Of a stretch of DNA of 64,000 bases, positions 5,465 to 57,132 are shown in pieces (position 1 is the first letter of the stretch; each line of letters begins with the position of its first letter). The notes below the pieces were generated by a model, which saw nothing but the letters and a program-made list of their open reading frames with translations, searched no databases and had not been told where the DNA came from. The DNA lies in the NCBI GenBank assembly GCA_030830685.1, contig JAURMM010000054.1:717-64716 (forward strand), in the 5' to 3' direction. The position numbers and the translations under genes were made by a program. The DNA is from Gammaproteobacteria bacterium (GTDB taxonomy: Bacteria; Pseudomonadota; Gammaproteobacteria; Ga0077536).

Positions 5465-6142
5465 TCAGCGAACCTCGGGCAATAGTTTGGGCAGGAAATC
5501 CCGCATGTCGTCCACCCATGCATCCGGCGCATGCGCGCGGAGATCCACTCCCGCCGGATAACCGTAACTCACGCAAAAGATGCGCATGCCGGCCGCGCGT
5601 GCAGCCGCCAGATCCGTGAATGAATCACCCACCATCACACTTTCCTGCGGGGACACGCCGCAGGTCTCGGCTGCGTGGAGCAAGGGTGCGGGATCCGGCT
5701 TCTTCACCGGCAGGCTGTCTCCGCCCAGCACTATCTGGAAATGGCAGGCAAGCCCCATGTCGGCCAGCAAAGGGTGGGTGAATCGCTCCGGCTTGTTGGT
5801 GATGCAACCCATGGTGATGTCGGCTGCGGAAAGCACAGCGAGGGTTTCCTGCACGCCCGGGAAAAGTTTCGAACGCGCGCTCACACAGTCGGCGTATCGG
5901 CGCAGGAATTCGGAGTACGCCGTCTGATGGAGGGGAGACGGCGCATTCCCATCCCTTAGGCCGGTGAGACACCGGTGAATCAGGCGCTCGGCACCATTGC
6001 CGATGAAGTGCCGAATCTCTTCTTCACTTCTGACCTCTCGCCCGACCGCGCGGAGGGCCGCATTGGCAGCCTCGGCGATGTCCGGTGCGCTGTCCACCAG
6101 CGTGCCATCTAGATCAAAGAGCACCAAGCGAACGCGCGTCAT
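5465..6142 (-). CDS. gph: Phosphoglycolate phosphatase (HAD superfamily)
   Basis: N-terminal [20 protein letters not shown] and C-terminal [19 protein letters not shown] motifs. It overlaps rpe by 4 nt, matching the conserved rpe-gph pair. Confidence 0.85.
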
Positions 6143-6822
6143 ATCCGGCTCTCACGCGCCGCTGCAATGGCGCGGCGCATCTCGTGGATGGTCGCGGTGT
6201 AGTCCGGGCTGTTGAAGATAGCCGAGCCAGCGACGAAGGTATCGGCCCCGGCAGCGGCGATGGCACCGATATTGTCCACCTTCACGCCGCCATCAACTTC
6301 CAGCCGTATCGGACGTCCACTGTCATCAATCATCCGGCGCGCCTCACGCAGTTTTTCCAGGGTGGAAGGAATGAAGGACTGCCCACCGAACCCCGGATTC
6401 ACCGACATCAACAGGACCATGTCGAGCTTGTCCCACACATGGCCCAGCACCTCCAGTGGTGTCGCCGGATTGAACACGAGGCCAGATTTGCATCCGGCCT
6501 CGCGGATCAGGCCGAGACTGCGATCTACATGACGGCTGGCCTCCGGATGAAAGGTGATGAAGGACGCGCCGGCCTTGGCAAAATCGCCGATCAGCTGATC
6601 CACGGGCTCTACCATCAGATGCACGTCGATGGGCGTGGTGATGCCGTACTTGCGCAGCGCCTCGCACACCATGGGGCCGATCGTGAGGTTTGGGACGTAG
6701 TGATTGTCCATGACGTCGAAATGGATGAGATCCGCCCCAGCGCTGACAACCGCATCAATATCCGCGCCGAGACGCGCGAAATCTGCCGACAGGATGGAGG
6801 GAGCGATGAAATCTGACTGCAT
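6139..6822 (-). CDS. rpe: Ribulose-phosphate 3-epimerase
   Basis: [50 protein letters not shown]...[13 protein letters not shown] is the classic Rpe sequence. Confidence 0.95.
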
Positions 6823-51066: not shown

Positions 51067-51831
51067 TCAGATCATCCGCCTGCCGAGCACGAGTCCACGG
51101 TGGCGCATGCGCTCCAGGATTTCGAGGCCGCCACTCAGGACCATATCCGGGGCGGAATGTCCCAATGCTTGCGCCAGCTCGGTGAGCACTTGTCGCACAG
51201 GCATCTCCGGGCCGTCACGCAAGCGCTCGAACAACGTGCGGGTCACCGCATTGAGTTCCAGCACGTGCAACTGATGTACTGCATCCCGGAACACCACCAG
51301 ATGGGTCTCCCGCACAGACTCCGCGGAAGCCAAAGCCTCCGGAGGCGCGGCATGGACCGCATAGCGATAGCTGGCCAGCCGATGCACCGGGTTGATGAAG
51401 ACCGGGTGTTCCAGCAGGTCGCCTTTGCGGTCGAAGCCATGCACTGGGACTGTCTGTTCGTCGCAGGCAACCGCATTTTCCAACCACTCGAAGTGGGCAA
51501 GCTCAGGGACCTGCGGGGGCAGTGAGGCAGGTGCATGGCGGCCCGTCAGGAAAGACAGGAATTCTCCCGGAAGGCGCGGGAACGCGGCGGTCTGTGCCGG
51601 GTGATCGCGGAGGTAGCAATCAACCAGATCATCCCACACGTCAGCGGTCAAGGCCGCCCTGACGCGTGGAAAATTGTCCGCCATGAACCGTTCGACGTTA
51701 TGGCGCACAGCGTACCGGTACACCTCCAGCCGTTCGCCAGAGAGGCCTTCCGGGGGGGCCTCATGCCGGGGATCGCGAAGATAGCGGACGAAGCTGCGTT
51801 GCGCCGTGATGAAAGACGGTGAGTTCTTCAT
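51067..51831 (-). CDS. DUF2063-family RiPP maturation partner (HvfC/BufC/MbnC-like role)
   Basis: FITAQRSFVRYLRDPRH...LEVYRYAVRHNVERFMADNFPRVRAAL...WDDLVDCYLRDHP fits the DUF2063 N-terminal pattern. It starts 7 nt after the DUF692 gene's stop. ATG at 51831. Confidence 0.75.
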   Translation of the reverse strand: MKNSPSFITAQRSFVRYLRDPRHEAPPEGLSGERLEVYRYAVRHNVERFMADNFPRVRAALTADVWDDLVDCYLRDHPAQTAAFPRLPGEFLSFLTGRHAPASLPPQVPELAHFEWLENAVACDEQTVPVHGFDRKGDLLEHPVFINPVHRLASYRYAVHAAPPEALASAESVRETHLVVFRDAVHQLHVLELNAVTRTLFERLRDGPEMPVRQVLTELAQALGHSAPDMVLSGGLEILERMRHRGLVLGRRMI

Positions 51832-51838
51832 GACGGCC

Positions 51839-52669
51839 TCAGCGGCGTCCTGGTGCCTGCTGCTGGAGATGAGCGATGTGCGCAACTTCCGTCATGACCG
51901 CGGGTAGCGACGGGATGTTTTCGTCACGCTCCAGCAGGGTGGGAAAAGTCCCATGGATGGAATAAGCATCGCGCAGCAGCTCCCAGACCGGATCGATCAC
52001 CGGCGCACCATGGGAATCGATGATGAGTCCGCTCTCCGTGCGGAGGTGGCCCGCAATATGCGCATAGGCGATGCGGTGCGATGGAATGCCGCGCAGGAAG
52101 TCTCGTGGGTCATAGCCATGATTGCAGGCGTTGACCCAGACGTTGTTCACGTCCAGCAGCAGATCGCAATCTGCTACCTCCAGCACAAGCCGGATGAAAT
52201 CCAGTTCGCTCATCTCCTGCATCACTACGCAGTAGTAGGAGGGATTCTCGACCGCGATCCGCCGACGCAGAACATCTTGAACCTGTCTGATTCTGGCCGC
52301 GAGATGGTGTGCAGACTCCTCGGTGAAAGGCACGGGGAGCAGCTCGTACAAAAGCCCGGAGTCCCCGCAGAAGCTGAGATGGTCTCCATATATGCGGATG
52401 TCATACCGGTCGAGGAAGGCGCCGATTTCCCGTATGTGGCCGAGGTCGAGGGGATCGGGTCCTCCCAGATTCAGCAGCAGGCCATGACCGGCCAGGGGAA
52501 TGCGGGAGGCAATGTTCGCGAGAGTCTCGCCCAGCCGCCCTCCGGCGCCCAGCCAGTTTTCCGGGGCAACCTCCATGAAGGAAACTGGAGCGGGGATGTC
52601 CTTGAGCAGGGCCCCCAAGTGGGGGCGCCTGAGACCGAGGCCCGCACCGTGAAGCTGTCGGGGACTCAC
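51839..52669 (-). CDS. DUF692 / multinuclear non-heme iron oxidase (MNIO) family peptide-modifying enzyme
   Basis: GAGLGLRRPH...FMEVAPENW...GHGLLLNLGG...YGDHLSF...IAVENPSYY...DVNNVWVNACNHGYDP...YAHIAGH is the TIM-barrel DUF692 signature. GTG start. Confidence 0.85.
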   Translation of the reverse strand: MSPRQLHGAGLGLRRPHLGALLKDIPAPVSFMEVAPENWLGAGGRLGETLANIASRIPLAGHGLLLNLGGPDPLDLGHIREIGAFLDRYDIRIYGDHLSFCGDSGLLYELLPVPFTEESAHHLAARIRQVQDVLRRRIAVENPSYYCVVMQEMSELDFIRLVLEVADCDLLLDVNNVWVNACNHGYDPRDFLRGIPSHRIAYAHIAGHLRTESGLIIDSHGAPVIDPVWELLRDAYSIHGTFPTLLERDENIPSLPAVMTEVAHIAHLQQQAPGRR

Positions 52670-52726
52670 GCTGCAGAGGTCGTCGCGCAGGCAGTCACTG
52701 ACCGCGCGAGAGAATGTGCTTTGGGC

Positions 52727-53038
52727 TTACTTCTTCTGAACGTGCGGCATGGAGCAGCTGGCGCTGCCAAAGGTCCCGCACACAGCCGGATCCTTGGTGC
52801 CGGTGGCGAGTTTTCCACTCGCATATTTTGCCTGCTGATCGCCGCCATAGTTGAAGCCTGTCTCATCGTCGATGGCGACCTTGTTGCCTTGCATGTCGAC
52901 CGCGTCCCCGGCCACCGTCACTGGTGCGCCGAACTCGACCATCTGGAACGGATTGTCGGCGTTGGCCGTTGCGGAGAGTGCCAATGCCATGGACGAGCCG
53001 ATCGCGAGCGCGACAGGCTTCAGGGTGTTCTTCTTCAT
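52727..53038 (-). CDS. Secreted 103-aa candidate RiPP precursor with a C-terminal CG-x6-CS motif
   Basis: Strong SD GAGGAGGAAGG upstream of the ATG at 53038. Sec signal MKKNTLKPVALAIGSSMALALSATANA, then DNPFQMVEFG... The only two Cys lie near the C-terminus: ...DPAVCGTFGSASCSMPHVQKK. It lies immediately upstream of the MNIO and DUF2063 genes on the same strand. Confidence 0.75.
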   Translation of the reverse strand: MKKNTLKPVALAIGSSMALALSATANADNPFQMVEFGAPVTVAGDAVDMQGNKVAIDDETGFNYGGDQQAKYASGKLATGTKDPAVCGTFGSASCSMPHVQKK

Positions 53039-53299
53039 CTGACCTTCCTCCTCGTTGCAAGAATTGCGTTCTGGTCGACCTCTGCGCAAAAACGCCAAAA
53101 CGGCCGATAATTCCGGACGCGGTCGCGAACCGCCCGGTGGTAGTGCCGGGCTCTCGGCGATGGTATGTCGCCCCCCATAGGCTGTAAACCAGCCTCGTGT
53201 CGGGGCGTTTAAGATCTCCGCCGGGGGCTCCTCGTGGCTGCGTCAGGTCGGTATGGTCAGGGATAGCGGTGGGCGAGGAATCTGTAACAGGGAGAACCG

Positions 53300-57058: not shown

Positions 57059-57132
57059 GCGGGTGTAGTTCAATGGCAGAACATCAGCTTCCCAAGCTGA
57101 GAGCGTGGGTTCGATTCCCATCACCCGCTCCA
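57059..57132 (+). tRNA. tRNA-Gly (anticodon CCC)
   Basis: GCGGGTG-TA-GTTC-AATGGCA-GAAC-A-TCAGC-TTCCCAA-GCTGA-GAGC-GTGGG-TTCGATT-CCCAT-CACCCGC-T-CCA. The cloverleaf folds by hand and the CCA is encoded. Confidence 0.95.

Follow-up and report, generated by a model that had tools for sequence, protein, structure and literature searches.

What does an MNIO (DUF692) enzyme modify when the small protein encoded beside it belongs to no described substrate family? The question is raised by a compact operon in a stretch of 64,000 nt from contig JAURMM010000054.1 of a metagenome-assembled gammaproteobacterium (GenBank assembly GCA_030830685.1; the whole stretch is hereafter the window). Three co-directional genes on the minus strand encode, in the order A-B-C, a precursor with a putative signal peptide, an MNIO and a DUF2063 partner. 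A first-pass annotation of the letters alone had likened this layout to operons for RiPPs (peptides made on the ribosome and modified after translation). The locus is probably an HvfABC/captophorin-type operon with a new kind of precursor, in which leader-guided Cys modification and export would yield one periplasmic copper site.

Enzyme, partner and precursor

Proteins B and C are ordinary members of their families and would be named automatically. The 276-aa product of gene B, taken for an MNIO from the outset, matches Pfam PF05114 (MbnB_TglH_ChrH, the former DUF692) over its full length (1-262/263; 320.5 bits against a cut-off of 25, E 1e-95) and passes the NCBIfam HvfB equivalog model NF003818 at 366.7 bits, just over its cut-off of 360. 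It stays below the cut-off of the BufB model NF050167 (259.6 vs 310 bits) and fails the MbnB model (27.5 vs 325 bits) as well as the ApyH and ChrH models. Alignment to 3BWW, the structure of the H. somni MNIO, matches every metal motif, and the set of ligands (H62, H97, E141, D173, N176, H204, D218, H220 and E247) is complete, together with the catalytic base D249. These ligands and Asp249 are unchanged in 56 of 56 orthologues, all of which also retain an Arg-Arg motif near the N-terminus (R14, R15). The 254-aa product of gene C matches DUF2063 (PF09836, E 4.6e-21) and NGO1945_C (PF22106, E 2.3e-19), is homologous to PDB 3DEE and scores 202.7 bits against the NCBIfam HvfC model NF050145 (cut-off 142), in agreement with its initial assignment as a DUF2063 partner.

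The precursor, in turn, matches no Pfam or NCBIfam family. Searches returned no match to DUF2282 (Pfam PF10048-type) at E <= 1, none to the EGKCG/KCGExKCG models NF050137 and NF050188 even at E <= 10, and none to the MbnA model; the bufferin 2 (BUF_6/12Cys) and CxxxxC motifs, tested by motif only, are absent (PMC12452194). Only two Cys are present, Cys87 and Cys95, spaced C-x7-C, and KCG occurs nowhere. The N-terminus, MKKNTLKPVALAIGSSMALALSATANA followed directly by DNPF, combines a positive n-region with a hydrophobic core and an A-x-A motif for cleavage, features that under the -3,-1 rule indicate a Sec/SPase I signal peptide. Homology to canonical EGKCG/HvfA precursors covers residues 1-46 (hhalign 98.8%, E 1.4e-16), with no alignment beyond them, and a profile of the family retrieves canonical EGKCG precursors via their N-termini. 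The early impression that the precursor resembles no known MNIO substrate thus holds for its core, which is new and has no curated model, but not for residues 1-46. Since the profile-profile homology is confined to that part, protein A reads as a leader of HvfA type to which a different module, of 56 residues with two Cys, is attached.

The consensus of the module is DMQGNKV.I.DETGF.YGGD...Y..GK.ATG.KDPAVCGTF....CSM.H., and the run Cys95-Ser-Met97-Pro-His99 in protein A clusters three classical Cu ligands. A search of 5.8 billion proteins found 170 homologues of the precursor, about 103 aa in length. The 120 that were listed are about 102-104 aa long, bar a few longer gene calls, share at least 69% identity and are named 'hypothetical' only. 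The invariant motifs are NPFQM.EF, DMQGNK.I.DETGF.YGGD and Y..GK..TG.KDP.VCGTF....CS..H. An exhaustive profile search of 1.84 billion representatives gave only 45 clusters; the precursor family is therefore small. Giant proteins also matched by the family profile (P0146, P0150 and others) were dismissed as unrelated beta-propeller-like repeats.

Conservation, fusions and enzyme loss among relatives

A scan with one genome per species found 77 related loci, all in uncultured gammaproteobacterial metagenome-assembled genomes. Strict A-B-C synteny recurs in about 50 independent loci, far beyond chance, and nearly all of these occupy one slot, ThiG-TrmB-HAD-Sel1 / A-B-C / Pyc-MBL (Pyc, pyruvate carboxylase; MBL, a hydrolase of the MBL fold). 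The slot persists in loci whose identity is down to 42-46% for Sel1 and to 34-39% for HvfC; the operon belongs to the core genome, is inherited vertically and is not an island. Six loci (L010, L016, L036, L014, L040 and L052) come from genomes that bear the name Klebsiella pneumoniae, Hydrogenophaga intermedia or Dehalococcoidia; since the same syntenic gammaproteobacterial locus is present, these names are probably mistaken.

The precursor is under strong purifying selection. Over 42 loci its median identity to the window is 73%, against 63% for the MNIO, 39% for the partner, 72% for Pyc and 76% for ThiG. Constraint on the precursor thus equals that on central metabolic enzymes, an unusual finding for a RiPP precursor.

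Four classes can be told apart among the divergent relatives. Class one, the fusions (L060, L065, L067, L069 and L080), displays, after the signal peptide and NPF leader, canonical EGKCG repeats that precede the module, with B and C adjacent wherever the contig permits; the EGKCG repeat model NF050137 exceeded its cut-off in both of the EGKCG-rich fusions tested. EGKCG precursors with an unrelated C-terminal domain appended provide a precedent. Here, in contrast, the appended module is not an EF-hand and has no Pfam match, and in the window lineage it has replaced the EGKCG part altogether. Class two, the NPF-bearing orphans, lacks adjacent B and C, but the genomes concerned have an A-B-C locus at another site; some of its members carry Met-rich C-terminal tails. 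Among these are the orphan paralogues L047:6001-6378, L052:102-797 and P0129, with no adjacent MNIO and with extensions, e.g. ...GAMKEEMTGKMMDKAMEGMEKMKDKL, that resemble Cu(I)-binding Met motifs; the orphan paralogues may be substrates modified in trans. Class three, the leader-less forms, passes from signal peptide directly to the module and has no B or C. Class four, the lipoprotein-like forms, consists of the module only, beside nqr genes. In L062, L068, L072, L073, L075 and L077 (mostly at about 5850-6165) the two-Cys module stands alone behind a lipobox (such as LASC or VASC), and in none of these six loci is there an MNIO. In the three of them inspected for neighbours (L062, L073 and L075) an nqr-type operon and a gene for a CBS-domain protein precede it on its upstream side, neighbourhoods that give no clue to function.

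Across these classes the leader co-varies with the enzymes. Presence of the NPF motif against adjacent B and C gives counts of 50/8/0/15 (Fisher 3e-10, uncorrected for phylogeny), and the leader is retained only where B and C exist nearby or elsewhere in the genome. Two loci, L056 and L057, occupy the same slot as their sister L051 and lack B and C; they also lack exactly the segment ENPFQMIEFG...DAV, while the module and both Cys are kept. In L053, too, B, C and the leader are gone and the module is kept. Its relative L042 still has the leader: at L042:6431-6669 an MNIO decayed to fragments (e.g. 'MLNLGGPDPLD') lies beside an intact leader-bearing precursor, and the locus looks like an intermediate towards the state of L053. 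Comparison of these loci points to at least two separate events of B/C loss with deletion of the leader and retention of the module.

The predicted product and its alternatives

A residue of the MNIO, too, follows the type of precursor. In FonB of the captophorin system, Phe250, which adjoins the catalytic Asp249, governs which residues around the modified Cys are tolerated and is conserved in EGKCG-type (Lys-Cys) MNIOs (PMC13097082). Position 250 is Phe in 3BWW and in the five MNIOs paired with EGKCG-bearing precursors. In the 51 MNIOs whose precursors have the module only it is Glu (44, the window enzyme being Glu as well) or Leu, Ile or Val (7), and the catalytic residues are all retained in these 51 loci. 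The window enzyme thus falls outside the Lys-Cys group by its residue at this position. Beyond the tracking of Phe with EGKCG repeats, position 250 shows no covariation with residues of the module. Argued from sequence, the switch at this position combined with an intact catalytic site suggests an enzyme that is active and adapted to a new Cys context.

On this basis, and by analogy with characterised relatives from which the chemistry and the link to copper are drawn (PMC13097082, PMC11252979, PMC12538549, PMC11626156), the following course is proposed. A strong Shine-Dalgarno sequence would drive efficient translation of the precursor, while B and C would be produced in smaller, coupled amounts and pair as a heterodimer. 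HvfC together with HvfB would bind the NPF leader (residues 28-47), and the diiron HvfB would use O2 to convert Cys87, in KDPAVCG, to a 5-thiooxazole with a mass change of about -4 Da; Cys95, in CSM.H, would probably be converted likewise (again about -4 Da). Sec export would follow modification, with cleavage by signal peptidase I after ANA27, to leave a periplasmic product of 76 residues. This would hold one ordered copper site with two thiooxazole N,S donors and with Met97 and His99 nearby, a site like that of a bufferin in a product with an HvfA-type leader and an HvfB-type enzyme. FonB favours a small residue after the Cys (PMC13097082), and Cys87 is followed by Gly88, in keeping with this preference. 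All characterised systems of an MNIO with a type 1 partner make 5-thiooxazoles and bind Cu (PMC13097082), and conversion of Cys to 5-thiooxazole giving one periplasmic copper site is the likeliest outcome here. The first-pass annotation named oxazolone/thioamide or thiooxazole groups; for HvfB-type systems the products are now assigned as 5-thiooxazoles and not as oxazolone/thioamide (PMC13097082).

Several observations weigh against this proposal. No copper-related gene, DoxX gene, extracytoplasmic function (ECF) sigma factor or MerR-type regulator lies nearby, and the conserved promoter looks like an ordinary sigma-70 promoter. Pro84, three residues before Cys87, is invariant, and FonBC rejects Pro near the modification site (PMC13097082). 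AlphaFold2 gave the precursor no confident fold (pLDDT about 48-50) from either an alignment of 112 close sequences or one of 37 diverse sequences, so the geometry of the site cannot be argued. The module is intact in lineages without B and C and in lipoproteins without an adjacent MNIO; its function is therefore not strictly dependent on modification, and in forms without the enzymes the Cys pair could be a disulfide. Lastly, the enzymes of the fusions keep Phe250, and the Cys of the fusion module may therefore go unmodified.

The persistence of the module bears on a broader view, held tentatively, in which the 56 residues are an independent periplasmic unit found in three states: unmodified, in the lipoprotein and signal-peptide-only forms without an MNIO; appended to EGKCG repeats; and as the sole substrate of the MNIO. 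If this were so, installation of thiooxazole would tune, at the protein level, a mini-protein that already bound a metal or partner and would not be a classical natural-product pathway, and lineages could switch modification off by losing B and C plus the leader.

A variant that we regard as unlikely has Cys87 alone modified (KDP.VCG), Cys95 being a free thiol or thiolate ligand or structural, so that one thiooxazole would act with Cys, Met or His side chains. Cys87-Gly88 holds the sole Cys kept in every class, including P0135 and P0156, in which the second Cys is lacking, and Cys95 precedes Ser and not Gly, whereas Gly and Ala were the only following residues that FonB accepted. However, Cys95 is invariant across the 121 aligned precursors (the 120 homologues and the window), known copper sites use pairs of heterocycles (methanobactin and bufferin; PMC11626156, PMC13097082), and the selectivity position differs in the clade of the window, so the rules of FonB may not transfer. 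More improbable still is an autonomous periplasmic mini-protein, stabilised by a disulfide or binding a metal or partner, that works unmodified while B and C act elsewhere, or for which modification is dispensable, or in which protein A is mainly a carrier with a leader left from an EGKCG ancestor: the survival of the module with both Cys after loss of B and C (L053, L056, L057), its occurrence in lipoproteins beside nqr genes with no MNIO nearby, a whole-length conservation equal to that of Pyc and atypical for RiPP cores, and fusions that retain it beside an MNIO with the EGKCG-type Phe250 all favour such a protein, but the precursor offers no Cys beyond Cys87 and Cys95, the catalytic residues are complete in the module-only loci, the selectivity residue changed exactly upon disappearance of the EGKCG repeats, the leader is tied to B and C, and no fold is predicted.

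The HvfABC/captophorin-type reading, favoured over these, can be set against characterised systems. With fonABC of Fontimonas thermophila (fontiphorin, captophorin class; PMC13097082) the locus shares the three-gene cluster, an HvfB-like MNIO with the Arg-Arg motif and Asp249, a DUF2063 type 1 partner and a precursor with a Sec-type signal peptide and NPF-type leader. FonA, however, has seven EGKCG-type sites, whereas the window precursor has none and carries its two Cys in a non-repetitive 56-aa module, and FonB Phe250 is replaced by Glu. In the hvfABC(X) oxazolin system of Haemophilus influenzae (PMC11252979; 10.64898/2026.07.17.739211) the precursor is likewise Sec-exported; the window B and C pass the HvfB and HvfC models, and B has a homologue in 3BWW, a protein with 72% identity to HvfB. 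The operon lacks the AEGKCGEGKCG repeats, matches to NF050188 and NF050137, and a DoxX (HvfX) gene. The bulbicupramide operon mmrABC of Microbulbifer (PMC12538549) shares a three-gene layout, unrelated flanks and lineage-wide conservation in the core genome, but MmrA combines a conserved leader with a variable core of EGKCG cassettes, whereas the window precursor is conserved throughout and has no EGKCG. Bufferin 1 (BufA1, DUF2282), encoded by bufABC(D) (PMC11626156, PMC12452194), resembles the precursor as a longer, non-repetitive, conserved and Sec-exported polypeptide whose Cys pair is expected to give one ordered copper site; the operon differs in having no DUF2282 match, DoxX, or ECF sigma/anti-sigma pair, in its sub-threshold BufB score and in a leader of HvfA type. 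In comparison with methanobactin MbnABC, the partner is DUF2063 and not MbnC, and the precursor has a signal peptide, which MbnA lacks.

The minimal three-gene layout and its lineage-wide conservation are already known, with fonABC and mmrABC as precedents. What is new is the core of the precursor and its evolutionary connection, via the fusions, to EGKCG precursors, as well as the correlated change at the selectivity site and a core module that outlives the enzymes. About half of the reference genomes of Pseudomonadota contain clusters of an MNIO with a type 1 partner (PMC13097082), and only three or four classes of MNIO precursor have been defined so far (PMC12452194). The same landscape study counts 776 unclassified signal-peptide precursors beside MNIOs, 93 of them with two Cys, and does not define the family of the window (PMC12452194). 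No mention of the precursor motifs or of MSR14457.1 and MBM4228201.1 was found in the searchable literature and its supplements; coverage of the supplements is partial, and absence is not proof. Identity of the family with 'adjamnio-3' is unlikely because 'adjamnio-3' is rich in RefSeq (WP_) entries, whereas the window family is found only in metagenome-assembled genomes. The family appears to be confined to uncultured Gammaproteobacteria and to belong to their core genome, which suggests housekeeping metal handling and not an accessory role. With two Cys and one predicted site it offers a simple system for the choice of Cys by the enzyme and for the role of the leader. It also includes natural controls, namely the fusion intermediates, the lineages that delete the leader with loss of the enzymes and the Phe-to-Glu switch, and raises the question of whether a RiPP core can also function unmodified.

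Operon layout and regulation

The positions of the genes and associated features are given in Table 1; every coordinate in the first-pass annotation of the three genes proved correct, including the spacings of exactly 57 nt from the stop of A to the start of B and of 7 nt from the stop of B to the start of C.

Table 1. Genes, precursor segments and expression signals of the operon (window positions).
Feature	Position	Strand	Basis or remark
Gene A, precursor, 103 aa	52727..53038	minus	ATG 53038 to TAA 52727
Gene B, HvfB-family MNIO, 276 aa	51839..52669	minus	GTG 52669 to TGA 51839
Gene C, HvfC-family type 1 partner (DUF2063 + NGO1945_C), 254 aa	51067..51831	minus	ATG 51831
Putative signal peptide, A residues 1-27	within 52727..53038	minus	sequence reading
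NPF leader DNPFQMVEFGAPVTVAGDAV, A residues 28-47, candidate HvfC/HvfB recognition element	52898..52957	minus	leader homology, tracking of B/C
Two-Cys module, A residues 48-103	52730..52897	minus	invariant or near-invariant columns
Cys87, candidate modification site	52780..52778	minus	in KDPAVCG, Cys-Gly
Cys95, candidate modification site	52756..52754	minus	in CSM.H
His99	52744..52742	minus	module residue
Putative sigma-70-type promoter, TTTACA-17 nt-TACCAT	53160..53188	minus	consensus scan; function inferred
Conserved block in 5' untranslated region (5'UTR), AATTATCGGCCGTTTTG, 17 nt	53096..53112	minus	near-invariant in 9 aligned loci
Strong Shine-Dalgarno of gene A, GAGGAGGAAGG	53043..53053	minus	direct reading; conserved in 21/21 aligned loci
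Stem-loop in A-B spacer, 8+3 bp, TCGCGC-N15-GCGCGA	52683..52709	minus	folding; no U-tract

The flanks are housekeeping genes, as first described, with pyc on one side and Sel1-repeat and HAD genes on the other; genes for the MBL-fold hydrolase and an AhpC/TSA peroxiredoxin also lie on the pyc side, and TrmB and ThiG genes on the other. The operon had also been called minimal. For about 8 kb around it, in the 97%-identical loci L001 and L002, there is no DoxX, transporter, TonB receptor or protease gene, which bears this out, but such a layout is not unusual, since fonABC (PMC13097082) and mmrABC (PMC12538549) have the same. The rest of the window contains neither a further copy of A, B or C nor an EGKCG gene.

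The promoter hexamers (TAGACA/TTTACA ... TAMCAT) align in more than 20 related loci despite diverged intergenic surroundings. The 5'UTR block has no convincing structure (RNAalifold -5.1 kcal/mol, almost no covariation) and no Rfam match, and could be an operator or an RNA-binding site. A stem of CGTTTTG and CAAAACG proposed by hand in the 5'UTR was rejected, being broken in L001 and L006.

The inverted repeat between A and B, proposed earlier to set the ratio of precursor to enzyme transcript, lies where it had been placed, but such a role gains little from the folding results: the hairpin has no U-tract and is no more stable than chance (z = -0.12 in an 81-nt context, z = -1.4 for the 57-nt spacer). 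The 53 distinct A-B spacers, which are not independent sequences, show only a modest excess of structure (mean z -0.50, Wilcoxon p 0.004). Across loci, stems recur at similar places but their sequences are unrelated, and the spacer RNA has no Rfam match. The hairpin could plausibly contribute to differential expression. At least as likely an explanation of the stoichiometry is that A has a strong Shine-Dalgarno sequence whereas the GTG start of B has none. GAGG, the Shine-Dalgarno sequence of C, shares bases with the stop codon of B, an overlap that points to coupled translation of the two genes.

A 385-aa open reading frame on the plus strand (51953..53110) lies antisense to B and A; GC-rich DNA has most likely given rise to it spuriously, because the minus-strand genes match their families strongly. 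The sole RNA gene detected in the window is a tRNA-Gly(CCC) on the plus strand (57059..57132). Farther afield, many of the loci L008-L041 share, about 150-250 nt upstream of the precursor gene, an element, GTAGCGATAGCGTTACGC...CTTTGCGTTACCCCGC, with a terminator-like GC stem and T-run after it. Neither the window nor its closest relatives have the element, which may represent either a small RNA or a gene's 3' end.

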